Below are positions 4,779 through 62,248 of a DNA stretch of 64,000 nucleotides, in pieces. The notes below the pieces were generated by a model, which saw only the letters and a program-made list of their open reading frames with translations, had not been told where the DNA came from and searched no databases. Every line of letters starts with the position of its first letter. Within the stretch, counting starts at the first letter, position 1. The translations under genes were made by a program, and so were the position numbers. Location of the stretch: IMG/VR virus record IMGVR_UViG_3300033153_010090, one strand, 5' to 3'. The DNA comes from an uncultured virus (IMG/VR IMGVR_UViG_3300033153_010090) (lineage: Duplodnaviria > Heunggongvirae > Uroviricota > Caudoviricetes).

Positions 4779-5095
4779 TGAGCCTAAAGTTCATGGACCC
4801 TGAGGAAATCCGAGCCATCATTGCCGATGAGCCCGATGTTCTCACACCTCTTGCAAAAGAAGAAACCGAGCGTTTCGACAATCTCCCATGCCCTGCGTGT
4901 GGAAACCGGGGTGCGACTCGAGTGGTTGAAGACGTCCGAATGATCGAAGGCAGCCACGGTCCACATCTGGTACTTCCCTTCGACGGCCAACCACTAGCGA
5001 AATGCTACGCCATCTGCAACGCGTGCGACACAGAGTTCGACCCTCAAACTGGTCTCATCCGGCGCTCCACCGCCCCATTCATGACTCACGAGTGA
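4778..5095 (+). CDS. Small zinc-ribbon protein
   Basis: CPAC...CNAC; lone plus-strand gene filling an intergenic gap. Confidence 0.7.
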   Translation: MSLKFMDPEEIRAIIADEPDVLTPLAKEETERFDNLPCPACGNRGATRVVEDVRMIEGSHGPHLVLPFDGQPLAKCYAICNACDTEFDPQTGLIRRSTAPFMTHE

Positions 5096-8000
5096 TGTTC
5101 AGCCCCTCCCCGATCTTCGCGAAGAAGCTCGAGATCCGCCCAGTCCCATTGTACGCCACGTCCGTCCCGCCCAGGGCGTTGTAGGACCGATCCACGATGA
5201 GGTTTCGGTCCAGATCATGTGTGACCGTCACCAGCTCAATCGGGTGGTCAATGGAATGGGCCCCTCGCCGCTGAATGAACCGTTCCACATCAGACACTTC
5301 CAGCTCGTCAAGGGCCCCCAGCTGGTTGATGTAGTCCTCGATCTCCTGCCCCACGATGCTCTGGGCAGAGCCCCCTCGGTAGACCATCGTGGCATGGACG
5401 TACGATGGGAGTACGTGCCGCGCGATGGGGTTGGCGTTGACCGGCCGCTCGGTATCCGACCGCATGAGGTCGTTGATGGCCCGAACTGTGGAAGAAACCT
5501 CCGCTGTAATCTGAAGGTTCCTGGCTGTGATCTCCGTGAGATTCTCTGGCAAGTCCGAATTGCCCGCGGGCAAAAAGCGCCGGTCGAACTTGAGGCTCAC
5601 CTCTTCGTAGGGGGAGAAGGTGAGGGTGTTGTTCTCGACCTCGTAGGTGTACCCGTCAGCCGCCAGACCGCTGGTGACCTCCAGCCTTTCATCCTTCTCG
5701 ATGTTCAATGCGTCACCACCACCCAGGGACTCCACCTGTGCGTCCACGTAGTAGAGCGCTCCGTCAAAGTTGTCCTCCATCTCGGTAGAGGAGACGCGGA
5801 GCACACCCGGGCGCCGAATGCGGAATGGAATGTTCGTCCCAAACAGCACATGCCCGTCAACCGTGATGAGGCGGCGTGATCCGAACGGCCCACCCCAGAT
5901 TCGGTAGTAGACGTTGGTATCCACGGACTCAAACGGTGCGTTGTGGTGAACCTCCAAGGAGGTCGTCCCAATGACCGTCGAGGCGTGGTAGACGCCCATC
6001 TGGTCGGGGTTGTAGGGGTCTCCACTGTGCACGATCTCCACCATGTCACCAGGGCTCACTCCGCTGAAGCTCACCGCAGTATCCACAAGCAGCGCCGCTT
6101 TCCCGCTGACAAGCTGAATCTCGGCTGGGCCTCCGCTGATGACCTCCGGCTCCACCGTAGCCACCTGGAGGATGGGCAGCTCAGTTGGCACCGACTTGTA
6201 GATGGAGAACGGCTGGAAGACGTTGGTGTTCCCCGCCGTGCGGAGCCACCTGAATCCATCCGCGATACCGATGATGCCGGAGCCTCCGGCCTCCGGATGG
6301 TCCGTAAGCTCGAGGTATGAGATCTGCACGGAGTCAATGGCGAAGGTGCCGCCGAAGGACTGGAAGTCCGGATTCCTGACCTCGAAGATGGTGATGTACT
6401 GACCCGCAGCTGCGCCAGTCGACGGATTGTCGGTCACGTCACTGAGCTGAATCGGGTCGGACGCGTCCAGCTCTCCATCTCCGGGGGTGGAGTTATCCTG
6501 AGCCAGCCAAGCCTGGGTAGTCGAAGCCATGACAGAACTCAACCGCAGCTGCTTCGGAGTCACCACCTCCGTAATGGTGTAGCGCCCCTCGTCTGGCCCA
6601 TTGTCGATGTAGAGCAGCTGGCCCACGATGGGCCCGTCGTTCGCGGAGTCATTCATCTCCTCAAAATCAATGGCGGAGCACTCCGGGATCTCCACAACGT
6701 TCGACCCGGCCACAGTCTTGAGCCCGGTCGCATTGAACAGCTCACCGTACCCGAGGACCGCGGACCCGTTGTCCCGGAAAGGAATTGGCTCGAATACCTC
6801 CATGACGTCCCCGGCCTGGAGCTCCAAGTCAAACGCGTCAGGGGTGTTGGGGCCGACCAACTCGAGCACTGTCTCGTAGTCGGAGCCTGCGTACTGGGAA
6901 TGGATGACACGCAAGTCTCGAGGGTCGTCATCTCCTGACCCACCGGCCGGCAACACGAGATGACCGTCGTGGGCAGAGAACCGGAAGTCCTGATAGGAGT
7001 CCGTCGCGACCTGGTGGCGCAGCCTACCGCCCAGTGGCCCAGTCTGAAGAGTGATCGTGGTGGGTTCCAGGAAGTACATGCGGACCCACCCAACAGACGC
7101 ACCACCAACGGTGTAATGAACACCGGCCGGGGCCGTAACAACTGTCCAGAGGTCCTTACCACCACTTGCCGCGGGGCGAAGGCCAAGGCTGTTCGTTGCG
7201 ACTGAAGTGACCTCGTACTCACCAGCGTTGCTGTCGTCCAGGATGGTCAGCCGGTCACCGGCCTGAACACCCTCTGCGACGAAATCAACCTCTACATCAG
7301 TGAGAGTAGACGGGAGAGTTGTCTGCCCCGTGTAACTTTCGGCCAGATCCCCCCGCCCTTGGTTGGAGAAGACGCCGCGAGCTCGAGCGTCAATGTAGTC
7401 ACCGAACGGGATGGAGATACCGGTCTCTTGCGAGGAAGAATCCAGCAGTTGCACATCCTTCACACGAACCAAGGGTCGGTCGAGAGCTGTGAACTCTGTG
7501 TAGATGGAGAAGCCTGAGTCGAAGGTAGTCGCTGGAGTCTCTGGCGTCACCTTGAGGCTGTCCGCGTACACCTCCTGGATGGTGTAGGACCTAGCGCTAT
7601 CACCCGTGAGGATCTCGAGGGTGTCGTTCACAGTCACGCCCGCGAGCTCGAAGTCGGTGTCCCCTCCGCCGGTGAGAGTAACTATCTGGGACCCAGCGGT
7701 AGTCACGAGGTCAGAGCCGGTGAAGATAGCCCCCTGGGGAATCTTGGTGGTGCGGGGCTCAATGAGGTTGATGTTGAGCTCATCCGCAATCCGGTAACGG
7801 TGGCCGCTCCCATTCCCCGACCCAGACGTATGAACCGTCCTGGTCAAGTCCTGGCTTAGAAGGAGTGCGTCGTTGGTATCGATCATCGTCAGCAAGCGAC
7901 GAATCGTGTAGATACCCGCATCGTCGCCCGCCTCAATGATCAGCGAGTCACCAATCTCCACGCCCAACGTGTCGAAGTTCACCCCCGCCGGAGCACGGCT

Positions 8001-9887
8001 CGCGTCTCGGTCCCGCACAACCGGTGCCATTGACACCTTCTCGCGGACGCGCAGTGTGTCGAAGTCACCCGTGCCACCGACGTTCGAGTCGGTCTGCCCT
8101 AAGCTAACAGCTGGGTTTACTGGCGGCCCTATGGGATCTACCGGAAGCTCCACATTCAACCCGCTGACAGTTACCACCCACCCTTTAACTGTCTGGGCTC
8201 CGAAGTTCTTGGACTGGAACTCGTAGCTGCCATACCCGCGGTAGGCCGTAATCTCGAATGTCCCTCTCGGGATGCTTGAGCTCTTCCCAGCCTTCTTGTC
8301 GAACTGGACAAAGCGCCCAACGTCCTCTGCCGACGGAACCCAGATCATCTCGGGCTTGCCAGTAACCGGTGGTGAGTTCCAATCCCAGTCCGGACTATCC
8401 TTGGGAATCAGAATGTCGAGCTCACCTAGCTCAAAGTCCCCGGGGGAAGCGACGCCGCCGGAGATGACAGCTTCGGTCATCCGGCCTGTGATGTTGATGA
8501 ACCGCTTTGCTCCAGGGTTGTCGTAGCTCTCCGCGAACGACTCGAGGTCGATGCCGAAATGCAAAGGCTCAGCGTCCCGAATGGACTCCACTGTAGTCGA
8601 CCGCTGCTGGGGGAACCCAGCGCGCACAAACACATCCAGCGCCCCGCCAATGTGAACCTCCCCGTCCACAACGGTGATGGTCCCCTCACTCGTCTCCGGG
8701 TCAACAATGCCGCCAGGGATATCTGAGAGGGTGATAGGTCCACCAGCCCTGCTGAAACTCCCGTAGCCAACCACGTAAGCGTCCGGGACTGGAGACACCT
8801 TGAACAGGTTCACCCCCTCGATGCTTGTGACCGTGTACTCCGTGGAGCCAAGGTTGTTGAGAAGAATCAGCTTGTCACCAACCTGCCCATAGTCACCGTA
8901 GTCTGCTGTCCCAACGTCGACGGCCTTAAAGCTCGTGGCTTGAAGGATGTCGGGATACGAACCAAAATTCGGGTGGTTCACGGTCTGGGCGATACCGTAC
9001 ACGAAGTCCGAGCCACCTGTGATGATGTCCCGCTCCATCTCAATGTCGCCGAAGCCGACGACCTGCACGGAGCGCACGTTCTGGAAGACGTCCAAGAGAC
9101 GAGCGTGGACACCACGAGCTGTGACCAGGGAGCGCTCGGAGAGACTGTTCTCCACCCGCTCAACGAACTCCTCGGTCGACTCCTTGTCCGCACCCTCCTC
9201 GAACGCAGACTTGTTCACCACCTTGACGACTTGAGACAAACCCTCGATGCCCACAAGCCCATCATCAATGTTGATATCGTAATCAGAGCCCACGCTCTCC
9301 GCACGTACCACTGTGTCGAAGTAGTAGAGCCCACCCTCGACATTCAGCTGCATATTGGTGGAGGTGATGGCCTGATTCTCCACGGGGAAGAACCGAAGAC
9401 CGCCAGCGGTGAAGACTGGGTTCGCGGGGGCCACGATGACCTGCTGCGGAGCAGAGAAGTAGAGCCGAGCCACACCCACAGAGAACCCACCAAGACGGCG
9501 GCGCACGAAGAAGTTGGCGGCCAGCTTGTCAGCCTCGTCCTCATTCAGCTCATCCGGAGCCTGAAGCGATTGGTTCTTGCTGACGAGGGCGATCTGTCGG
9601 CGGAACGGCTCGAGAAGCACCCGGTTGATCTTGACGGCGTAGTCGTCCAGCGCATCGTTGTCCTGCATGAGCAGGTCTGGGAACTGGGACCGCAGCCGCT
9701 CCTTGATGAAGGTGGCAATCGGGGTGTCGTACGGGTCAGGGGCCAAGCGCTCGATGGTTGGAGTGATGACCTCCATCTCCGCAGGCGACCCAGCCGATAC
9801 GTCCAAGCTCGGGTCCATCCGGAGCAGCGCTTCCTTCAAGAACGTCCGGAGGTTTTCCAGCTCGTTGAAGGTGGTGGTGTCGGACAT
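5079..9887 (-). CDS. Giant baseplate J-like wedge protein with large beta-rich insertion
   Basis: 1602 aa; N-terminal baseplate-J features (VRAESVGSDY, GADKESTEEF..R) and C-terminal IEDYINQL..LEVSDV. Confidence 0.75.
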   Translation of the reverse strand: MSDTTTFNELENLRTFLKEALLRMDPSLDVSAGSPAEMEVITPTIERLAPDPYDTPIATFIKERLRSQFPDLLMQDNDALDDYAVKINRVLLEPFRRQIALVSKNQSLQAPDELNEDEADKLAANFFVRRRLGGFSVGVARLYFSAPQQVIVAPANPVFTAGGLRFFPVENQAITSTNMQLNVEGGLYYFDTVVRAESVGSDYDINIDDGLVGIEGLSQVVKVVNKSAFEEGADKESTEEFVERVENSLSERSLVTARGVHARLLDVFQNVRSVQVVGFGDIEMERDIITGGSDFVYGIAQTVNHPNFGSYPDILQATSFKAVDVGTADYGDYGQVGDKLILLNNLGSTEYTVTSIEGVNLFKVSPVPDAYVVGYGSFSRAGGPITLSDIPGGIVDPETSEGTITVVDGEVHIGGALDVFVRAGFPQQRSTTVESIRDAEPLHFGIDLESFAESYDNPGAKRFINITGRMTEAVISGGVASPGDFELGELDILIPKDSPDWDWNSPPVTGKPEMIWVPSAEDVGRFVQFDKKAGKSSSIPRGTFEITAYRGYGSYEFQSKNFGAQTVKGWVVTVSGLNVELPVDPIGPPVNPAVSLGQTDSNVGGTGDFDTLRVREKVSMAPVVRDRDASRAPAGVNFDTLGVEIGDSLIIEAGDDAGIYTIRRLLTMIDTNDALLLSQDLTRTVHTSGSGNGSGHRYRIADELNINLIEPRTTKIPQGAIFTGSDLVTTAGSQIVTLTGGGDTDFELAGVTVNDTLEILTGDSARSYTIQEVYADSLKVTPETPATTFDSGFSIYTEFTALDRPLVRVKDVQLLDSSSQETGISIPFGDYIDARARGVFSNQGRGDLAESYTGQTTLPSTLTDVEVDFVAEGVQAGDRLTILDDSNAGEYEVTSVATNSLGLRPAASGGKDLWTVVTAPAGVHYTVGGASVGWVRMYFLEPTTITLQTGPLGGRLRHQVATDSYQDFRFSAHDGHLVLPAGGSGDDDPRDLRVIHSQYAGSDYETVLELVGPNTPDAFDLELQAGDVMEVFEPIPFRDNGSAVLGYGELFNATGLKTVAGSNVVEIPECSAIDFEEMNDSANDGPIVGQLLYIDNGPDEGRYTITEVVTPKQLRLSSVMASTTQAWLAQDNSTPGDGELDASDPIQLSDVTDNPSTGAAAGQYITIFEVRNPDFQSFGGTFAIDSVQISYLELTDHPEAGGSGIIGIADGFRWLRTAGNTNVFQPFSIYKSVPTELPILQVATVEPEVISGGPAEIQLVSGKAALLVDTAVSFSGVSPGDMVEIVHSGDPYNPDQMGVYHASTVIGTTSLEVHHNAPFESVDTNVYYRIWGGPFGSRRLITVDGHVLFGTNIPFRIRRPGVLRVSSTEMEDNFDGALYYVDAQVESLGGGDALNIEKDERLEVTSGLAADGYTYEVENNTLTFSPYEEVSLKFDRRFLPAGNSDLPENLTEITARNLQITAEVSSTVRAINDLMRSDTERPVNANPIARHVLPSYVHATMVYRGGSAQSIVGQEIEDYINQLGALDELEVSDVERFIQRRGAHSIDHPIELVTVTHDLDRNLIVDRSYNALGGTDVAYNGTGRISSFFAKIGEGLNITRES
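5560..5573. repeat. Dispersed 14-bp palindrome, copy 1 (TTGCCCGCGGGCAA), intragenic
   Basis: Perfect palindrome matching TTGMCCGCGGKCAA. Confidence 0.75.
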
Positions 9888-15793: not shown

Positions 15794-16747
15794 CTACAAG
15801 GTCCTCCGAATGGCGAACGGGTAGTCCGGGTTGACCGGGTTGAACGGGTCCGGAGCAGTCGCAGCGATCCCCAAAACATCGAAAGAGGTAGCGTCCGGTA
15901 CCACGAACTCTCGCACGTAGGCCGTACCCTCGATCACCATCTTCACCCTCAGTCCACGAACCAACGTGACTTCAGCGTGACCACTGTTATCGGTGGTGAC
16001 TGTTACCGGTGCGCGCATCAACGCAACATGGAACCCCTCGATCTCGAGCGGCTCCTGAAGTGGGTAGAAGGTGATCCGGTGGTCAGGTTGCGACACGCCC
16101 TGAGCGTCCACCAGGTCGATGCTGCCCAAGCTCAGGTTACCTGAGGTGATGACCGTCCCGGGCTCGGCCTCGAACGGCTCAGACCAATCGCTCGTGAGGC
16201 CGGTGCCCTTATGGTAGAACGCCACCCGATAGAAGAAGGTTTGGCTTCCTGTCCCGTTCCCATCCCGGTCGTAGAAGTTGTAGGCGCTCTCCCCCGCGAC
16301 GAGCGTGATGTAGTCCTCCTCGCCGATGTCCCGATCCTCAGCCGCAAAGCCGAGGTCGACAAGTGCCCCACCCCCAGGGAGGTAGAGCTTGGACTGAGTT
16401 CCCGTGAGGAGAGACTCTAAATTTAGCTTGCCGGCTAAATCTGAGGCCACTCCCGATTCGACTGTGTTGATCTGGTCGGCGACCTGGTCCACGGTCAGGG
16501 GATCTACCCCGGAGAAGACGATGTCGTGGAGATTGCCGCTGTCGACCTGCAGCTGCATCGTCTTGGCCGCAACGTTGAACGGGCTGTCCTCCGTCCCCAG
16601 AAGAGTTGCGGCCTGGACCCCATCGGCCGTGAGCTCGGCCCAGGGGCCAATGTCAGCCTCAGCTCGCTGCACGCGCATGGAGTCGAACGACGCAAGCGCG
16701 TCATCGATGTCGTCCACGAAGATCGAGAGGGTGTTGACGCCTGACAT
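15794..16747 (-). CDS. Virion structural protein
   Basis: 317 aa; C-terminus resembles part of the 14537 gene (VTTD..G..EVTL.RG). Confidence 0.7.
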   Translation of the reverse strand: MSGVNTLSIFVDDIDDALASFDSMRVQRAEADIGPWAELTADGVQAATLLGTEDSPFNVAAKTMQLQVDSGNLHDIVFSGVDPLTVDQVADQINTVESGVASDLAGKLNLESLLTGTQSKLYLPGGGALVDLGFAAEDRDIGEEDYITLVAGESAYNFYDRDGNGTGSQTFFYRVAFYHKGTGLTSDWSEPFEAEPGTVITSGNLSLGSIDLVDAQGVSQPDHRITFYPLQEPLEIEGFHVALMRAPVTVTTDNSGHAEVTLVRGLRVKMVIEGTAYVREFVVPDATSFDVLGIAATAPDPFNPVNPDYPFAIRRTL

Positions 16748-16750
16748 GGG

Positions 16751-17035
16751 CTAGTCCTTCTTCACCTTGCGGATCGAAGGAGCCTGAGAGACACCGCGCA
16801 CAGTCGGGGGCTTGACCGGCTGCGTCGGCGGAGATTCTGTGGCACCACGAATCTCTGGCTCTTTCCGCTTGGCATTGATGATGATCGGCGGGCTACGCCG
16901 CTTGGTGGATACGTTGGTGACGTCGGGTGCTTGCTCGGCCACACCTACCAGCCGCGGCGGCTCCGGAGCCTGGACTGGCACCAAGATGCTGCGGGAATGG
17001 CAAAGGTAGCCTCTGGTGGCAAGCGCTAGGGTCAC
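16751..17035 (-). CDS. Hypothetical Pro-rich protein
   Basis: 94 aa; GTGA overlap with the upstream gene. Confidence 0.55.
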   Translation of the reverse strand: MTLALATRGYLCHSRSILVPVQAPEPPRLVGVAEQAPDVTNVSTKRRSPPIIINAKRKEPEIRGATESPPTQPVKPPTVRGVSQAPSIRKVKKD

Positions 17036-17568
17036 AGCTCCTCCAAGAATCGATACTTGATGGCCCCCGTTGCGTCGTAGGCCGCCTCGATGGTGTAGCG
17101 GTGAAGCAGTCCTGTCGTCTCGGTCCCACCCGGAACCGTGGGGACGTTGGACTTATCAGCGAACACCCGCAACCTACCTCCAACCAGTCTACCCTCTGCA
17201 TCATACGTTTGGTTGTCGAACAATGCGTTGCGGTGAAGCAGACCAAGAACACGCTGCATGTCGGCGTACAGAGTGGAGAGAGTGGCGTCGCCGACGTCCA
17301 CCTCAGAGATCCAGTACTCATTGTTGTAACTATTGAAGATTTCCACCTTCCAGTAGCCAACAATATCGGGAGTGTAGGCGATCCGGTACTCACCGCTGGA
17401 GTCGATCTCATCAACGGTCACAGCGGCCGTGTGCTCGAAGCCATCCACCCAAACGGCAGGGACGAATGTGCCCCCGGCTATCCCGGAATGTTTGGTGTAT
17501 CCGTCATCTTCGAAGACGGGAAACTGGTCTGCGACCTGCTCGCCTGGGACTCCCTGGCGCATCTGCAC
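17032..17568 (-). CDS. Hypothetical structural protein
   Basis: 178 aa; preceded by minus-strand TATAAT at 17597-17592. Confidence 0.7.
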   Translation of the reverse strand: MQMRQGVPGEQVADQFPVFEDDGYTKHSGIAGGTFVPAVWVDGFEHTAAVTVDEIDSSGEYRIAYTPDIVGYWKVEIFNSYNNEYWISEVDVGDATLSTLYADMQRVLGLLHRNALFDNQTYDAEGRLVGGRLRVFADKSNVPTVPGGTETTGLLHRYTIEAAYDATGAIKYRFLEEL

Positions 17569-17625
17569 CCCGCTCTCGTGCTGCTGAGGTCATTATACTA
17601 TTGACCCCCGGCCAGGGTAGCAAGG

Positions 17626-18423
17626 CTACTTCCAAGACCAACCAGACTTCATCTTCGCATCCACAGAATCGAAGCCCACCTTGTAGAGCCGTTCGATCAT
17701 GGCCGCGTCCAGCTTGAAAAAGTCGAGCCCAGAGATGGGCGACTCGATGGTGACAATCTTGGCACTCTTCCACACAGCGGTCCGGATGTGCTGCCGCTCC
17801 GCGGCCATCATGAAAGCCGAGACGATGTTGATGTTGAAGGAACCCCACCACTTCCAGGGCTTCATCTCACTGCCAGCGCCCAGCACGCGAATCCCCACTG
17901 CAGGCCCGGCTGGGCGGTCGATGGCAAAGTTGTTGGACACCCCTCCATCCGTCAACCGCTTCCCGTCCATCCGCACGACCGGGAAGATGTCAGGCATGGA
18001 AATAGAAGCCTGCACCGCCTTGGGCAAGGACACCTTGGGGGTATCCTTCGATGAGAAATAGACGGGCTTCCCGGTGTCGGAGTCGGTGGCCACGATGGTC
18101 AAAGGGATCGTAGTCTCGCAGAAAGTGGGCGCGACGTTGTCCTTCAGGTACTTCTGCAGCCGGTCGATGTTAAAGACACCAGGCTCGAACAGGAACTTCC
18201 GGCTGGGGCGGATGAGCTTGTCAGGGGTGATTTTCTTGGCGAGCTCTTTGGCTTGCTGAGGGGTCTTGCCAGAAGCGAAGTACGCACCCATCAGAGCGCT
18301 ACCAGATGTCCCAGTCCAGCTCCCGACTTCCATCCCGTCGGTGAGGAGCCGATGGAGGGCTCCGGCTACAACGATGTAGTTGGCCCCGGTGCCACTTCCG
18401 ACAACGTCCTTCTTGATGCTCAT
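17626..18423 (-). CDS. Patatin-like phospholipase
   Basis: Gly-rich loop GSGTG, nucleophile GTSGS, IVATD, ASISMP..FP, LTDGGVSNN. Confidence 0.9.
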   Translation of the reverse strand: MSIKKDVVGSGTGANYIVVAGALHRLLTDGMEVGSWTGTSGSALMGAYFASGKTPQQAKELAKKITPDKLIRPSRKFLFEPGVFNIDRLQKYLKDNVAPTFCETTIPLTIVATDSDTGKPVYFSSKDTPKVSLPKAVQASISMPDIFPVVRMDGKRLTDGGVSNNFAIDRPAGPAVGIRVLGAGSEMKPWKWWGSFNINIVSAFMMAAERQHIRTAVWKSAKIVTIESPISGLDFFKLDAAMIERLYKVGFDSVDAKMKSGWSWK

Positions 18424-18791
18424 CCCTTTTCCTCTGCCATCTTCATCTGCCGTAGGTTCTCACGGAACTCATCATGGGCCCTGCTTACCTTCTTCGAGCT
18501 CTCAGCTGCGAAGTCGACGATCTCAGCCACATCACCACGGCTGCGTTTGGCCTTCTGGACCAAGAGCATGGCGTCGACGAGACCCCTGTCCACACTACCT
18601 CTGACCACCAAGGCCTGGCCAAGCATATAGTCGCTGTTCTCGTCCTGGAACTGCAGGGCCTCCTTGAGCTCCTCGCCCGTGATCAGGCCGTTGTCGACGA
18701 GCAAACGTCCAAGTGATGTCTCATCGCTCCTCGGCTCCGAATGCCCATTACGCCGGCGTCCGAAAAACCAGACCATGTCGCCCTCCACCAT
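18420..18791 (-). CDS. Stand-alone MshEN-like (c-di-GMP-binding-fold) protein
   Basis: Tandem 24-aa motifs SLGRLLVDNGLITGEELKEALQFQ and MLGQALVVRGSVDRGLVDAMLLVQ. Confidence 0.8.
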   Translation of the reverse strand: MVEGDMVWFFGRRRNGHSEPRSDETSLGRLLVDNGLITGEELKEALQFQDENSDYMLGQALVVRGSVDRGLVDAMLLVQKAKRSRGDVAEIVDFAAESSKKVSRAHDEFRENLRQMKMAEEKG

Positions 18792-18794
18792 GGC

Positions 18795-19151
18795 CTACTT
18801 GTGCTTGACGCACAGTGCCACGACATCCCTGTTCACGGAGTCCAAAGTCTCTTTCATGGCCTTGACCAGTTCTGTGAGACTGCGCGAGTGATCGCGAATC
18901 TCCTGAGTCTTCTGGCCCTCGTTCTTGACGGTCTCGTCGATGGCAGCCAGCGTCGCCATCTGCTCAACATTGGACTTGATGACCATGCCCAAGAGCTTGA
19001 TCAACTCGTCCTTGAGCTTCATGTACTCCCGACCCAGCCAGATGACCAGAGGCACGGTGAGTACGATGACCAAGGCCGCCACTCCCCAACCCATCAAATC
19101 CTTGAGGGTCATTCCCATCTCGTTGATTGCTTCCGGTCCCATAGTCTCCAC
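18795..19151 (-). CDS. Single-TM coiled-coil membrane protein (holin-like)
   Basis: Hydrophobic WGVAALVIVLTVPLVIWLG followed by a heptad tail. Confidence 0.55.
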   Translation of the reverse strand: METMGPEAINEMGMTLKDLMGWGVAALVIVLTVPLVIWLGREYMKLKDELIKLLGMVIKSNVEQMATLAAIDETVKNEGQKTQEIRDHSRSLTELVKAMKETLDSVNRDVVALCVKHK

Positions 19152-19160
19152 CTGATCAAG

Positions 19161-19313
19161 CTATTCAGGCCGCCTTTTCACGGGCTTGTAGCCCATGTCC
19201 TTCTTCTTCGAACGCAGGATATTATCGGCCTCCTTGGCCCCCACCTCCCTGTACAGTTTGACCGCCTTGCCGGGCTCGACTTCCTCGCCGTTGATGATCA
19301 ACTTCTTGGCCAT
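19161..19313 (-). CDS. Small basic protein (50 aa, not in ORF track)
   Basis: MAKKLIINGEEVEPGKAVKLY...RRPE fills the gap; GAGGAG upstream. Confidence 0.6.
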   Translation of the reverse strand: MAKKLIINGEEVEPGKAVKLYREVGAKEADNILRSKKKDMGYKPVKRRPE

Positions 19314-19316
19314 GCC

Positions 19317-19790
19317 CTACTCCTCGTACATCTTGTAGTCGCAGTACATGACGTAGTCCTCGTCGCCAACCGACTCGACCAGGGCCCGCAGGTACAGGCC
19401 GGCGGGGATGAAGGCGGCGCTGCCGAATGCCAGATGCACGTCGCCGATGACACCCGGGCGCAGGTAGCGTTTGCGGATGTACTTGCGCACGGTCAGCACG
19501 TCCTGACCCACGGTCAGGCCGTAGGTGGAAAATAGCCCGAGCACGTCGTCCTTATCCACGACCGCCATCTCGCAGTAGTCGCCGTGAACACTGGCGCCCT
19601 CGACGGCGTAGCAGCCGCCCTGGAGCTTGACGTTCGTGGCCAGGAGCACGTCGTGGACGTTCAACGCGCCGGCGACGACGTCCATGTAGAATCCGTCGAA
19701 GCAACCATCCAAGCCGCCGGCGTCGATGAACGACGGCGCATTGATCGCCCGACCCTCAGCGTCTCGCGGTGGTATGTAGCCAACAGGCAT
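19317..19790 (-). CDS. Hypothetical beta-rich virion protein
   Basis: 157 aa, coupled. Confidence 0.7.
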   Translation of the reverse strand: MPVGYIPPRDAEGRAINAPSFIDAGGLDGCFDGFYMDVVAGALNVHDVLLATNVKLQGGCYAVEGASVHGDYCEMAVVDKDDVLGLFSTYGLTVGQDVLTVRKYIRKRYLRPGVIGDVHLAFGSAAFIPAGLYLRALVESVGDEDYVMYCDYKMYEE

Positions 19791-20326
19791 CAGCCAATCT
19801 CCACGCCCTTGAACAGGGCCGATTGATGGACGAGGTTGGACAGGTCATCGCGGATCGTGACCCTGACGTAGTCGGCGCTGCCATAGGTGCCGTCGGCCTT
19901 GAACGTGAAGCCGTCGAGGGACAGGTGCACGTTCATGTTGTCCGGCGTCGTGACGATGAGCTCGAAGCTGCCGGGCTCGGCGAGCTGGTTGTACTCGCGT
20001 GTGGTCTTGATGTTGGCGATCTCGTACTCGACGTCCTCGGCCTTGATCTCAATAAGCACACCGTTATCCAGCGAGTCGATACCCGCGTAGGCGTCGCCCA
20101 TGTCGATTGCCGCGTCCTCCATGGCCATGACCAGGGCCATGCCGTAGACGTCCTTGGACCCCGGGTTCCAGGTGAAGACGACGGGTGTCGACTCGGCGTC
20201 GATTGCCATCTCCACCGACGCGTCGTCGAGCAGGTAGCCGTGCATGGCCCGACCACAACAGACACCGGGTTTGTTGATCGCGATGACGGGCACGCCCTCG
20301 TTCGTGCGCGGTGTAAGAGCGGTCAC
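19790..20326 (-). CDS. Hypothetical beta-rich virion protein
   Basis: 178 aa, coupled. Confidence 0.7.
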   Translation of the reverse strand: MTALTPRTNEGVPVIAINKPGVCCGRAMHGYLLDDASVEMAIDAESTPVVFTWNPGSKDVYGMALVMAMEDAAIDMGDAYAGIDSLDNGVLIEIKAEDVEYEIANIKTTREYNQLAEPGSFELIVTTPDNMNVHLSLDGFTFKADGTYGSADYVRVTIRDDLSNLVHQSALFKGVEIG

Positions 20327-20844
20327 AGCACATACCCCCTGACCACGGCGTCGATTTCACCGGCCTTGGACATTTGCTGACGTTTGACGATTATCTTCGT
20401 CGTCGAGCCGTCGCCGACCATGACCGTGCCGTCGCGGGCCTCGGCAACGTCATCGTGGGCCACGGCCAGCGTGAAGCCCGTAAGGTAGTAGCGTTCGAGA
20501 ACGTGGCGCGTGGCACCGACGGCGTAGAAGACCTCGACACGCGCACCCTTCTCGGTCGGGTCGCCAGCCGCCCCTACGGCCACGAACTGCAGGTAAAATG
20601 CCTTGGCGTCGGGGATCGTGTACTCGGCCTCCTCTATCAGCGGGTTGCCCGATACCTCCAGCGGATCGCTGGCGTCGATGGTCACGGCCACGGAGCCCGT
20701 CGGCGGCTGCGGCGGCGTGACCACGGTCTTGCTGGACACCAAGAGCCGGCGCTTGGCGCCGTCCTGCACCGAACCCAGTGGCTCGTAGTCCTGGTCGCCG
20801 GGGCCGACGTGGACCCAGACCAACGCCGCGCGACTCTCGGTCAT
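20323..20844 (-). CDS. Hypothetical beta-rich virion protein
   Basis: 173 aa, coupled. Confidence 0.7.
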   Translation of the reverse strand: MTESRAALVWVHVGPGDQDYEPLGSVQDGAKRRLLVSSKTVVTPPQPPTGSVAVTIDASDPLEVSGNPLIEEAEYTIPDAKAFYLQFVAVGAAGDPTEKGARVEVFYAVGATRHVLERYYLTGFTLAVAHDDVAEARDGTVMVGDGSTTKIIVKRQQMSKAGEIDAVVRGYVL

Positions 20845-24207: not shown

Positions 24208-24432
24208 CTACCCAGTCAGGAAGTCATTGATCTCATCGGCCGTCGCTAGCACAGCCTCGTTGAGATTCAGGACCTTAGGGTCGCTCACCCCTCTCCCCTT
24301 CAAGACAGCCTGCATGAACTTGTTCTCGTTATCTAGCCGCTCTTTCTCCTTGCCTACCCACTCCTGTACCTTGGCCTTCAACTCGTCCAAGTTGGCGTCA
24401 CGCTGTGCTGTATCTGGCGGGGCCTTTGCCAT
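24208..24432 (-). CDS. Hypothetical helical protein
   Basis: 74 aa, coupled to the sigma factor gene. Confidence 0.65.
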   Translation of the reverse strand: MAKAPPDTAQRDANLDELKAKVQEWVGKEKERLDNENKFMQAVLKGRGVSDPKVLNLNEAVLATADEINDFLTG

Positions 24433-25166
24433 CAGAAGTCCATCACCCGGTTGAAGATGTCAGTTCGAATACGGGTCACCTTCGACGGGCTAATCTTCAT
24501 CTTCTTGGCGATCTGACCGGGCTTCAGTTCAGGCTTGCCCCCATCACCGATAGTGTATTCGTAGACGAGCTTCTGCTCCGGGTTCAACTCGTGCTTCACC
24601 AACCGAAGACGCTCCATCTCAATAGACGGAGTGATGGTCGTAGGGTCACCCTCGTAGGAGGACTCAATGTGGGCCTTGCGAATCTCAGACCCCATCCGAC
24701 CAACCTCTCGAGGTGACCAGCTAAGGTACTCTGCCATCTCCTGCTGAGTAGGCTCACGACCGAACCGGTCGTCCAACTGAGACTTCGCTGCCTCAAACTG
24801 CCCAATCTTGTAGATGCGGTGCTCACCAATGCGAGCAGGGTTCTGGTAGGTGGCCACCCACCTCTTCCCCTTCTGAATGTTGGTGGTGACCCATGTACCC
24901 AACGCGGCGCCCTTGTTCGGGTCGTAGGTCCGAAAGGCGTTGACAGCCTGCTTCGTGAACTCTGCGTGGATGGAGTTGGGCGGGAGCTCCACATTCCGAG
25001 CGAACTGGTTCGACTGCTTCCGGATCATTCCGCGGAAGTTGCTGAGCAACGGACGTAGATCTCCCGGCTTCTCCCCGCCATGCTTCCACTTGTCCCAAAG
25101 CTGGAGGTCCTGCTCGCGCAGAGTTGGACGGCCTTTGACCGCCTCTTTGATGAGGGCACCGATCAT
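24432..25166 (-). CDS. RNA polymerase sigma-70 family factor (group 3, FliA/SigF-like)
   Basis: Region 2 AFRTYDPNKGAALGTWV; region 3 GREPTQQEMAEYL; region 4 LNPEQKLV...GQIAKKMKISPSKV. Confidence 0.9.
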   Translation of the reverse strand: MIGALIKEAVKGRPTLREQDLQLWDKWKHGGEKPGDLRPLLSNFRGMIRKQSNQFARNVELPPNSIHAEFTKQAVNAFRTYDPNKGAALGTWVTTNIQKGKRWVATYQNPARIGEHRIYKIGQFEAAKSQLDDRFGREPTQQEMAEYLSWSPREVGRMGSEIRKAHIESSYEGDPTTITPSIEMERLRLVKHELNPEQKLVYEYTIGDGGKPELKPGQIAKKMKISPSKVTRIRTDIFNRVMDF

Positions 25167-59809: not shown

Positions 59810-60181
59810 ATGAGCAAACTGACAATATGGGCACAGGTCCTCGTGAGAGGCTTGTGGAAGAGGATGGAGTTCCCTGAGCTTGAGCGCGGAGACCTCTTCC
59901 GCCTCTACGACGAGGAAGGCAAGCCCGTCGACGGTGGGGAGGTCCATGTCGCGGATGCGGAGCCGTTCGAGCGGGAGTCGCTCTGGGCTGTGAAGTCACA
60001 CCTCGCCGGCCGTGGCGAGCCGGTGCGATACGTGGATGTAGGCTCGTGCAGCTACTGTGTCATGAACAGCGACAGTGCCTGCAGAGCTGTGAGCAGACAG
60101 TGCCCGCCAGATGGTGTGACGCCGGACTGGTGTCCTCTTCGTGAGGGGCCGGTCTTTATCAGCTGGGTCGGTAGTGATTGA
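59810..60181 (+). CDS. Hypothetical protein with C-terminal Cys cluster (PDWCPL)
   Basis: AGGAGGCC RBS. Confidence 0.7.
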   Translation: MSKLTIWAQVLVRGLWKRMEFPELERGDLFRLYDEEGKPVDGGEVHVADAEPFERESLWAVKSHLAGRGEPVRYVDVGSCSYCVMNSDSACRAVSRQCPPDGVTPDWCPLREGPVFISWVGSD

Positions 60182-60207
60182 CTCACAGAGGCTGGAAGGA
60201 GGCCATC

Positions 60208-61815
60208 ATGATCGAATTCGATACGAAAGCGTTCAACGCTGCGATGGAGAAGCTCGACAAGGAGCTTCCCGACGAGCTACCTGAGGTCAAGCGGTTCCAC
60301 GCTGCGGCTCTGGTCGTCGGTGGGGACATGAAGGGAGACAACTTCTGGATCGTGATGGCTGTGACCTTGCTCGGTGTTAACGAAGGCTGGGAGTGGCCGT
60401 ACCTGCTCGAGCACACCGTGAAGATTCTCCCCATCTATGTCAAGGGGTCCGGGTCGAATAAGAACCGCGGGATGCGCTTCACTGAGTTCTGGATCGATAC
60501 CAACTGGGACTTCAGTTACCCCATCAGCATCTTCGCTGAGGTCTTCAGGCCCATCGCCATCGCACACAAGAAGTGCTGGTCTCTCCCGGCCACTGTCGAA
60601 CGCGCCAAGGAGATCTGGGAGCAGGAGTACGCCTCGTGGGAGAAGGCTCTCCACACGCGTGTGAACAAGAATGGTGACCGGTTTGTCGATCGCACCTACC
60701 ACATGATGAAAGAGATGGGTTCGACGAAGAAGCACGTCATGAAGGGCAGAGCTATTGGGAAGAGCACCGCCATGCAGTGCCCAGTTTGCAAGCAGACGAA
60801 GGATCTTGACCCCACCAATCCGTGGCACCTTGGAAAGTCCATGTGTTGCCCGGACTGCAAGCCATTCATGGCTGGTCCGCGTGGCATCAGGTCTGATGTT
60901 CCGCACATGGACCCGGCAGACGATCTCCGCCCCGCAGTGAACGCCATGGTGCAGGGCCAGGAAGTCGACAGGATGATAGCGGCAGGCGTTGATCCGGCCA
61001 CACCAAACTCAGAGGTGACCGCAATGATCGCCTACCAGACGAAGGGGCCCTACGCCTCACACCTGGACTTCGTGCACATGCGCGAGCACCTGCAGCAGAA
61101 GATATTTGCTGCGCTACACGTACCAGCAGAAATGCTTGGTGTGGTGGGTAGTGAACCTGAGAAGGTGAGCGTCGCTGAGTCCTTGGAGAAGACCAAGGAC
61201 ATCCCCATCTTCTCAACGATGACTGGGCGCATGCAGTGCAAGGAGCCGAACATCAGCAACCTCCCCAGGAGTGAGAAGATGGATGACGGACAACGAGCAT
61301 CAGACCAGATCCTCATCTGCGAAGGGCAGGAGTTCCTCGTTGACGGTGACTGCGTCATAGTGTGGGACCGAAACGGCTTCAGGAAGAAGCAGGGCAGTCA
61401 GTTCGTCCATGGAAAGTTCGTCCAGGACGACACCCACGATGGCCACATGTTCCTTCGCAGAGGCAGCCCTGTGAGGCTGATCGACTCCGATGGCAAAGAG
61501 ATCGGCCGGGCCGTCATCCGCGGTGATGGGGAGCTCGACGTTCTCGAGGAGGCCCTCGACATCAAGCTGGGGAAGAGCTTCTGGGCCGTGGTCGGCATTG
61601 ACCGAGATGACCCCTCTGTCTGCCACGGAAAGGTGATGGCCTTCTACTACAAGTACCACGAGGACTCAGCTTACACTCACAACGTCATTCACCTGCGCCT
61701 GGATAATGGCCATGTCGCCCACTGCTCCGACAAGGAGCTCTTCAGGACACAGGAGAAGGCTGAAGCGCAGAGGATGAAGCTCCTGGAAGGGAGCAATGAT
61801 GACGGCACCGATTGA
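60208..61815 (+). CDS. Mosaic protein with terminase-, portal- and PolA-like short motifs
   Basis: 535 aa; KGRAIGKST, DFVHMREHLQQKIFAALHVPAEMLG, TMTGRMQCKEPNISNLPR. Confidence 0.75.
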   Translation: MIEFDTKAFNAAMEKLDKELPDELPEVKRFHAAALVVGGDMKGDNFWIVMAVTLLGVNEGWEWPYLLEHTVKILPIYVKGSGSNKNRGMRFTEFWIDTNWDFSYPISIFAEVFRPIAIAHKKCWSLPATVERAKEIWEQEYASWEKALHTRVNKNGDRFVDRTYHMMKEMGSTKKHVMKGRAIGKSTAMQCPVCKQTKDLDPTNPWHLGKSMCCPDCKPFMAGPRGIRSDVPHMDPADDLRPAVNAMVQGQEVDRMIAAGVDPATPNSEVTAMIAYQTKGPYASHLDFVHMREHLQQKIFAALHVPAEMLGVVGSEPEKVSVAESLEKTKDIPIFSTMTGRMQCKEPNISNLPRSEKMDDGQRASDQILICEGQEFLVDGDCVIVWDRNGFRKKQGSQFVHGKFVQDDTHDGHMFLRRGSPVRLIDSDGKEIGRAVIRGDGELDVLEEALDIKLGKSFWAVVGIDRDDPSVCHGKVMAFYYKYHEDSAYTHNVIHLRLDNGHVAHCSDKELFRTQEKAEAQRMKLLEGSNDDGTD

Positions 61816-62248
61816 CGACTTCCGTGGTGAGTACAAGTGGCTCTCTAACTTCTGGCGAGAGCCATTCCGACACTGCGAGAAGATCTGGCCCAGCTCAGAG
61901 CACGCCTTCCAGGCAATGAAGACCCTGGACCCTGAGATGCAAGAGGAGATTCGCACTGCAGTATCTCCTCGAGAAGCCAAGCGCTTGGGCAGCCCTAGAA
62001 ACACCCGGTTGGTTCTCCGTCCAGGATGGGACGCCGTGCGTATTGACGTGATGCGACATATCCTGCGGGCCAAATTCAGGTCGGCCCGGCTCGCCAAGAT
62101 GCTCCTGGACACTGGCGATGCCGAGCTCGTCGAGGGCAACACATGGAAGGATGACTTCTGGGGCGTGTACAACGGGAAGGGAGAGAACTGGTTGGGTCGC
62201 CTCCTCATGGAGATCAGAGAGGAGATCAGAGATGTGTCAAACAACTGA
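61796..62248 (+). CDS. NADAR (YbiA-like) family protein
   Basis: FRGEYKWLSNF, SEHAFQAMK, AKRLG, AKF, LLDTGDAELVEGN...DDFWG...GENWLGRLLMEIR. Confidence 0.92.
   Translation: MMTAPIDDFRGEYKWLSNFWREPFRHCEKIWPSSEHAFQAMKTLDPEMQEEIRTAVSPREAKRLGSPRNTRLVLRPGWDAVRIDVMRHILRAKFRSARLAKMLLDTGDAELVEGNTWKDDFWGVYNGKGENWLGRLLMEIREEIRDVSNN

Follow-up and report, generated by a model that had tools for sequence, protein, structure and literature searches.

An MshEN-like protein encoded with a small membrane protein and a patatin-like lipase among the late structural genes of an uncultured tailed phage: a candidate membrane-attack module

Why should a tailed phage carry, in the midst of its tail genes, a patatin-like lipase next to a protein that resembles the N-terminal bundle of PilF, PilB and MshE? 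The question is raised by a stretch of 64,000 nucleotides (the window), part of a 134,485-base contig from an uncultured tailed phage (IMG/VR record IMGVR_UViG_3300033153_010090), in which a tight minus-strand cluster at 17626-19151 encodes, in the order of reading, a membrane protein, an MshEN-type protein and a patatin lipase. Our tentative answer is that the cluster may be a late-expressed membrane-attack, or lysis-accessory, module. Its constant unit is the pair formed by the membrane protein and the MshEN-like protein, with the lipase as a frequent but exchangeable third member.

The three open reading frames (ORFs) that an earlier note on this DNA had described are present at its coordinates, all on the minus strand, and the ATGA that it reported, formed by the end of the middle gene and the patatin start codon, lies at 18423-18420. 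The lengths first taken for two of the products, 118 amino acids (aa) for the membrane protein and 123 aa, the figure in the note, for the middle protein, have been corrected to 115 aa and 118 aa by a choice of other starts. For the membrane-anchor gene (18795..19142, minus strand), known as an ORF and as a database call, the likeliest start is the ATG at 19142, the one called in the public collection, and a GTG at 19151 is an alternative. For the MshEN-like gene (18420..18776, minus strand), the ATG at 18776 is favoured because a GGAGG lies 5 nucleotides (nt) upstream and because relatives begin MVW, an N-terminus found in all three close aligned relatives of the protein and also in 2 of the 47 further family rows. 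The patatin gene (17626..18423, minus strand) encodes 265 aa. The description of the whole as a translationally coupled three-gene cassette stands for the middle gene and the patatin gene, which share the ATGA, and falls for the first two, which are separated by an 18-nt gap with no overlap.

The identity of the middle protein is the point from which any reading must start. The protein has two 24-residue MshEN-type motifs, SLGRLLVDNGLITGEELKEALQFQ and MLGQALVVRGSVDRGLVDAMLLVQ, which span residues 21-74 (18555..18716) and are separated by the six-residue spacer DENSDY. It keeps L2, G3, L6, G10, L21 and Q24 in both motifs, with Leu in the first and Val in the second at position 17, and departs from the consensus at position 1 (Ser in motif I, Met in motif II), at position 11 of motif II (Ser) and in the length of the spacer. 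The NCBIfam model NF053729 ('c-di-GMP_motif, MshE-related'; 53 positions) matches it with an expectation value (E) of 3.4e-9 and 36.3 bits, just below the cut-off of 38, which is passed by the relative P0002 (39.0 bits) and by the protein of locus L003 (51.9 bits). The Pfam family PF05157 gave no MshEN match to the window protein at E <=0.1. A PDB search with a profile built from four close relatives found Thermus PilF at 4e-9 over the whole chain and at about 1e-3 for the isolated GSPII-B domain, and also PilB, with MshE (5HTL) at 0.14. By the NF053729 match and the PilF profile match, the likeness goes far beyond chance.

The family around this protein is best seen in small, stand-alone proteins. 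A HMMER search with a six-sequence profile of 1.84 billion representatives gave 3731 matches at E <=0.001, the majority being multi-repeat or ATPase proteins of bacteria; of the 150 best of these 3731, 46 clusters are small proteins of 97-139 aa that match in a single stretch and align over nearly the whole profile, two short proteins that match in two stretches (P0099 and P0102) having been left out. These 46 and the proteins of the window, L002 and L003 make up the alignment used here (A5; 49 rows, of which the L003 row duplicates P0029 bar its first residue). Position 1 is Ser in 44 of the 49 in motif I, and in motif II it is Met (28), Leu (10), Arg (4) or Lys (2). Position 2 is Leu (38) or Ile (9) in the first motif and Leu (41) in the second, position 3 is Gly (45 and 49, respectively), and position 6 is Leu (49 and 48). 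Position 17 is Leu in 44 members in motif I and Val, Leu or Ile in 44 in motif II, position 20 is Ala in 48 in motif I and not conserved in motif II, position 21 of motif II is Leu in 37, and position 24 is Gln (45 and 48). The spacer is six residues long in 45/49.

The predicted fold agrees with the motifs. The AlphaFold2 (AF2) model built from the 49-sequence alignment has a predicted local distance difference test score (pLDDT) of 83.2 and supersedes an earlier model from four sequences (pLDDT 60); after the tail MVWFFGRRR at the N-terminus, which is basic and aromatic, its helices (22-28, 34-46, 52-58, 64-78 and 83-117) would form a four-helix bundle and then one C-terminal helix of ~35 residues. 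When this model was compared with the PDB by Foldseek, the rows listed (ranks 1-10, 12 and 13) were all MshE (5htl) or PilF GSPII-B. Ranks 1-12 had probabilities of 0.97-1.0 and root-mean-square deviations (rmsd) of 1.1-2.9 A over 53-62 columns at 28-38% identity, and rank 13 had a probability of 0.54 over 38 columns; the best E was 0.017, with no row at E 0.001 or better. A search of viral folds in BFVD gave no convincing match (best E 0.2, rmsd 7.6 A). The nearest clusters in the ESM Atlas (scores 0.95, 0.93 and 0.92) are proteins of 95-122 aa, mostly labelled viral, and serve as a lead only. By sequence profile and by model alike, the MshEN likeness is real, and the two motifs and six-residue linker described in the earlier note are thus upheld. 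With Vibrio cholerae MshE (5HTL) and PilF GSPII-B (8PDK, 8PFA) the phage protein shares the tandem 24-residue motifs, the four-helix bundle and the Leu, Gly and Gln at ligand-side positions. It differs in being viral and stand-alone, with no ATPase or glycosyltransferase fusion, in having the single helix 83-117 in place of the MshEN_C alpha/beta subdomain, in its N-terminal tail, and in being always encoded beside the gene of a small hydrophobic protein; its family further differs in having Ser and Met/Leu for two Arg and a spacer of six rather than five residues.

Likeness in fold and sequence to the N-terminal bundle of PilF, PilB and MshE is also what one would expect if the small protein were a nucleotide-free mimic of the N-domain of host PilB, MshE or GspE that titrates a PilZ- or GspL-type partner and so blocks pili or secretion. 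The complex of a PilB N-domain with PilZ (7lkm) is among the weaker fold matches, and phages are described as disabling type IV pili via PilB or PilZ with the unrelated peptides Tip/Aqs1 and Zip (PMC11656802). The explanation is nevertheless improbable in our judgement: the residues that the family conserves are the ligand-side ones, and the known pilus inhibitors are described as prophage-expressed (PMC11656802), whereas the MshEN-like gene lies in a late structural operon.

Would the protein, then, bind cyclic di-GMP (c-di-GMP)? According to two studies, the MshEN consensus is (R/K/L)LGxx(L/V/I)(L/V/I)xxG(L/V/I)(L/V/I)xxxxLxxxLxxQ, present twice with five residues between, and c-di-GMP is held in MshE mainly by Leu clusters and backbone amides, so that a change in any conserved hydrophobic residue lowers affinity more than 10-fold and changes in Arg9, Asp12 or Gln32 lower it <=~5-fold (PMC5013675, PMC11731258). 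The isolated MshEN_N fragment 1-62 binds with a dissociation constant (KD) of 0.35 uM (PMC5013675). In Thermus PilF GSPII-B, Lys and Leu replace the two Arg and c-di-GMP is bound with a KD of 6 nM; the authors widened the consensus to (R/K/L)LG... and predicted high affinity from a hydrophobic first residue (PMC11731258). The replacement of the motif Arg residues by Ser and Met, which the earlier note had held against ligand binding, is thus real as an observation and weakened as an argument, since PilF GSPII-B binds its ligand without those Arg. On the PilF reading, Met or Leu at the start of motif II should even be favourable. Three features are left unexplained: neither published consensus set (R/K/L or the relaxed [RKPN]) includes the Ser conserved in motif I, the spacer is one residue longer, and there is no C-terminal subdomain. 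On balance, binding of c-di-GMP may be regarded as possible, with failure to bind the likelier outcome.

If it did bind, the pair could act simply as a c-di-GMP receptor or sponge at the membrane that reprogrammes host outputs such as pili, secretion or exopolysaccharide, for example in superinfection exclusion or host takeover, and the patatin would then be merely a frequent neighbour. The strong conservation of the ligand-side L2, G3, L6, L17, L21 and Q24 in both motifs across the 49 members speaks for this, as do the binding by fragment 1-62 on its own (KD 0.35 uM; PMC5013675), the dispensable Arg together with the gain in affinity from Leu at motif position 1 (PMC11731258), motif II having Met or Leu there in 38/49, and the occurrence of the pair without a patatin at loci L083 and L084. 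We nonetheless consider it unlikely, given a motif I that begins with Ser (44/49) outside either consensus set, a spacer of six and not five residues in 45/49, a window protein just under the NF053729 cut-off with no Pfam MshEN match at E 0.1 or better, and a late structural operon as an unusual place for a takeover gene.

The partner of the MshEN-like protein is the 115-aa membrane protein, which consists of one hydrophobic helix (residues 16-37) and a charged helical tail of ~78 residues. Because the hydrophobic segment is uncharged over 22 residues and its 19-residue Kyte-Doolittle mean reaches 2.46, it is clearly predicted to be a transmembrane helix. The charge is net -2 on the N side of the helix and +1 on its C flank, which suggests an N-out, C-in topology and therefore a tail in the cytoplasm. 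A relative, P0179, is 77% identical. Searches of holin and spanin families gave no match for the protein, and the only matches of any kind were sub-threshold ones of coiled-coil type (e.g. DUF1664, E 4e-4, below its cut-off). The name 'holin-like' given to it earlier is apt as regards the one hydrophobic helix and the charged helical tail and goes too far in that no holin family was matched; the protein does show the holin traits of small size, a single transmembrane helix and a charged tail. Holins, which make lethal holes in the membrane, are encoded next to an endolysin, and no endolysin is recognised in the window. The product of the adjoining gene is without a hydrophobic N-terminus or lipobox. 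A role as i-spanin was considered and rejected, on the ground of the N-out, C-in topology (an i-spanin is N-in, C-out, its coiled coil lying in the periplasm) and of the lack of a lipoprotein partner.

Evidence that these genes belong together comes from their linkage across eight loci with a full-length MshEN-like gene: the window, two metagenome contigs (L002 and L003), four IMG/VR contigs (L081-L084, of which L083 and L084 have identical ORF lists) and a 42-kb contig of a metagenome-assembled genome labelled Halanaerobiales (L085). A relative of the membrane protein is encoded directly upstream of the MshEN-like gene in 8/8, and a patatin downstream in six, directly so in the window, L002, L081, L082 and L085 and after one zinc-ribbon gene in L003. 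The ATGA that couples the MshEN-like gene to the patatin recurs in L002, L081 and L082. Scanned separately, with the membrane-protein family as query, IMG/VR gave these same four contigs and no others. The structural genes that flank the window module have relatives in L001, a further locus that carries a related patatin, and in L082 and L085, and the loci differ widely in G+C content, from 37% to 59% among five related loci (given as L081-L083 and L085), the window being at ~60%. The synteny that the earlier note asked for is thus there. A fixed partnership between MshEN and patatin is not supported: the three genes are not an obligate unit, since the lipase is missing beside the pair in L083 and L084 and stands with an unrelated 83-aa protein in L001, and it is the membrane protein that constantly accompanies the MshEN-like protein.

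At L001, a hydrophobic 85-aa protein is followed by the 83-aa protein, which lacks MshEN motifs and any NF053729 match. This 83-aa protein (5727-5978) fills the place of the MshEN-like protein, which it resembles in its N-terminal tail (MGLLSSIFGLRSRKK) and in ending with a helix; it is the slot that is conserved there, not the fold. The zinc-ribbon protein of ~110 aa, which is DUF1922-like (E 1e-6 in L003), separates the MshEN-like gene from the patatin in L003 (708-1040) and follows the patatin in L002 (1739-2077), as a mobile fourth member; tblastn gave no match to it in the window. Upstream of the pair in L083 (2856-3766) stand a 192-aa protein and a 127-aa protein with several hydrophobic stretches, which might be another effector and membrane set. 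The 192-aa protein was tried as a hydrolase and rejected, its only matches being phrog_1128 ('enoyl-CoA hydratase/carnithine racemase-like', E 3e-17) and a weak one to PptT. P0179, the 77% identical relative of the membrane protein, P0003, a relative of the MshEN-like protein (79% identical), and the patatin P0012, which is only 50% identical, are each recorded on a contig of 78,782 bases, and this disparity hints that the lipase gene may have been exchanged between lineages.

Other searches delimit where the family is found. A profile search of genome contigs yielded 11 loci, among which only L085 had a full-length relative and eight matched over 33-72 residues only; L086 and L091 proved to be a GspE/PilB-type ATPase and a multi-repeat bacterial protein. 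Neither of two different family members found a match by tblastn in 50,697 GenBank phage records, and these records held no DNA similar to the window. Scans of IMG/VR with single proteins (the window proteins, P0112 and P0064) found nothing, and neither alignment A3 against IMG/VR nor alignment A1 against metagenomes gave a match.

The third member is a lipase with its catalytic apparatus in place. Patatins are defined by a Ser-Asp dyad in GxSxG and DG[GA] motifs and a glycine-rich oxyanion loop. The window protein matches Pfam PF01734 at E 4e-24 (86.3 bits against a cut-off of 27.7), with the nucleophile Ser40 in GTSGS (codon 18306-18304) and Asp159 in DGG (codon 17949-17947). Among 781 candidates, a word-index search gave 24 proteins at E <=1e-5, 21 of which are 45-96% identical, several on contigs of 40-146 kb; Ser40 and Asp159-Gly160-Gly161 are invariant in the window patatin and these 21 relatives (22/22). 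The elbow GTSGS, which the earlier note read correctly, has Ser in place of the last Gly of GxSxG, and the glycine-rich loop GSGTGAN is nearly invariant; the more distant patatins of L081, L082 and L085 have the canonical GxSxG and DGG. Within the family, the C-terminal half is also conserved, with invariant Trp residues in a segment whose window version is KPWKWWGS. No 19-residue span has a mean hydropathy above 0.87, and the protein is therefore without a hydrophobic N-terminus or signal peptide.

Among solved structures, the profile of this patatin finds PlpD of Pseudomonas aeruginosa best (7e-21), followed by VipD and ExoU (1e-8 to 5e-10), and the RssA model matches at E 4e-7 with its equivalog cut-off missed (29 bits against 272). 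The phage subgroup shares the Ser-Asp dyad and DGG with PlpD/RssA patatins and differs from them in its GxSxS elbow and in having no secretion domain. Apparently, then, the product is a cytoplasmic, generic PlpD/RssA-like enzyme that is predicted to be catalytically competent. Patatins are rare in deposited phages, the 50,697 GenBank records giving by tblastn four weak patatin records, none of which covers 80% of the query.

The earlier note had compared this lipase with CapV, the effector of cyclic-oligonucleotide-based antiphage signalling systems (CBASS), and one might accordingly propose a CapV-like lipase switched on directly by a cyclic dinucleotide that the MshEN-type protein passes on. 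The ATGA coupling in the window, L002, L081 and L082 would suit such an arrangement, as would the weak binding of cyclic GMP-AMP (cGAMP) by MshEN that one study records (PMC5013675). The comparison itself fails beyond the shared patatin fold. With the NCBIfam model CBASS_lipase (NF041079), whose cut-off is 200 bits, the patatin scores 11.9; its match to the CapV-type structure 9iom reaches only 5e-4 where PlpD reaches 7e-21, and on these grounds it is apparently not a CapV. The PADLOC phospholipase effector models match weakly (17 bits, E 6e-4), no cyclase (CD-NTase) family was found among the 15 neighbouring proteins scanned, and the gene is phage-borne in a structural operon. The same ATGA, moreover, joins the MshEN-like gene of L083 to an unrelated 80-aa gene, and the patatin of L001 stands with a non-MshEN protein. 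The CBASS-like gating idea is therefore unsupported, and we regard it as very improbable.

The setting of the module in the phage bears on when the genes would be used. The module is flanked upstream by tail-fibre-like genes and downstream by baseplate genes, within a long leftward series of late structural genes; matches in the window include a baseplate wedge protein (phrog_6, E 1e-15), a baseplate protein, and tail-fibre and Laminin_G_3 proteins, besides a sigma-factor-like protein, an ATP-dependent ligase, an HNH endonuclease, a UvsX/RecA-like recombinase and a polynucleotide-kinase-like protein. A promoter and terminator scan of 16500-20500 gave no signal above shuffled controls, so that the three genes appear to be transcribed within the long leftward late operon.

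A place between tail-fibre-like and baseplate genes, found in the window and at every related locus, could also mean that the patatin is carried in the virion or ejected from it and opens the host membrane at entry, with the two small proteins aiding assembly. Position alone decides little here, because the holin gene of phage T4 also lies beside tail-fibre genes. The lipase is small and stand-alone and has no structural domain, and one would not expect a virion component to have a partner anchored in the membrane; an entry role thus seems to us improbable.

We therefore return to the late membrane-attack module, which is possible rather than established and for which the phage context, the intact lipase motifs, the conserved linkage, the MshEN fold, the ligand-side residues and the proposed cassette of phage WO described below can be cited in support. 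Neither the lipase nor the MshEN-like protein has an export signal. The lipase would be made in the cytoplasm along with the virion proteins and would hydrolyse membrane phospholipid at the end of infection. With the membrane protein N-out and C-in, its tail, the MshEN-like protein and the lipase would share the cytoplasmic face of the inner membrane, and the pair might serve at the membrane as a unit of control or docking, in the manner of a holin with a cytoplasmic antiholin or cofactor, that decides when or where the lipase, or another effector in other phages, attacks membrane phospholipid. The least secure step is the input, which may be c-di-GMP or a related dinucleotide, as the family keeps the residues that bind the ligand in MshE. 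A more specific version, in which the MshEN-type protein is a viral cyclic-dinucleotide receptor tethered to the membrane by its partner and the host second-messenger level sets the timing of the lipase or other effector, appears decidedly unlikely; were it true, the timing of lysis would be coupled to the biofilm or motility state of the host. Prediction of a complex between the membrane protein and the MshEN-like protein gave ipSAE values of 0.02 and 0.01 against a mark of 0.32, in runs without controls, and speaks neither for nor against contact.

Several observations weigh against a membrane-attack module. The hydrophobic segment measures only 13-16 residues, with means of 1.1-1.3, in five relatives of the membrane protein (L002, L003, L081, L082 and L085), and membrane insertion is accordingly less certain for them. 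L083 and L084 have the pair with no patatin, the stop of the MshEN-like gene being overlapped, again as ATGA, by an unrelated 80-aa gene, and L001, a 145-kb contig, has a patatin 52% identical to that of the window beside its unrelated 83-aa protein. The position among tail genes would also suit a virion or entry role. Finally, neither the neighbourhood of the module nor the rest of the 64-kb window, less than half of the 134-kb contig, yielded an endolysin, a recognised holin or a spanin.

Two known arrangements may be set beside a module of this kind. In phage T4, the T holin works with RIII, a cytoplasmic antiholin or cofactor. The likeness lies in a small membrane protein with a small helical cytoplasmic protein, encoded in a late region near tail-fibre genes; the differences are the absence of any sequence or family relation, a predicted topology opposite to that of T4 T, and no endolysin nearby. 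The other parallel is phage WO, for which one paper proposes a lytic cassette of a patatin, a holin-like coiled-coil protein with one transmembrane segment and a helical-repeat protein, beside the tail module (PMC9203015). Both have a patatin beside a one-transmembrane, charged-tail protein and a helical protein, next to tail genes and with no canonical endolysin; in WO the third protein is of ankyrin-repeat and not MshEN type. No kinship between the two was seen, the patatin tblastn of the 50,697 phage records having given four weak records, none of them named WO. The WO cassette is itself hypothetical, and the WO host is without detectable peptidoglycan, according to the same paper (PMC9203015).

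In the literature searched, no description was found of a phage-encoded MshEN-type protein or of such a module, and the patatin lytic cassettes in the phage literature found concern phage WO. If c-di-GMP were bound, a bacterial receptor module would be extended to viruses, and phages would be seen to read host lifestyle signalling directly; if the lipase acts in release, digestion of membrane lipid would become a step of lysis alongside endolysin, holin and spanin, one so far only proposed, and for WO alone. The small MshEN-like family is not rare, with 46 members among the best 150 representative clusters, yet it is absent by tblastn from the 50,697 GenBank phage records, and it thus represents a blind spot of cultured-phage biology. 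All parts of the module are small and easy to express, so that these claims are directly testable.

The surroundings of the module offer some further observations. The small basic gene that precedes it (50 aa; 19161..19313, minus strand) is part of the conserved neighbourhood: a 47-aa gene in the same slot of L082 is 40% identical (tblastn), and L002 has in that slot a 59-aa ORF whose N-terminal stretch is alike by eye and for which tblastn gave no match. Just past the patatin stop, at 17568-17626 on the minus strand, a TTGCTA, 17 nt and a TAGTAT overlapping TATAAT can be made out by eye, a pattern that the consensus scan did not report. The sigma-factor-like protein (24432-25166, minus strand; Sigma70_r3 E 1.6e-8, phrog_351 E 3e-10) is encoded just upstream of the tail-fibre block and suggests that the phage may direct its own late transcription. 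On the same strand, at 5079-9887, lies the gene of a 1602-aa protein whose N-terminal 300 residues match the T4 gp6-type baseplate wedge family (phrog_6) and whose other 1300 residues are without a family match. On the plus strand, a 150-aa ORF at 61796-62248 has a strong match to the NADAR domain (PF08719, E 9e-29) and a weak one to the phage protein Gp30.3, and overlaps by ~20 nt the end of a 545-aa ORF at 60178-61815.

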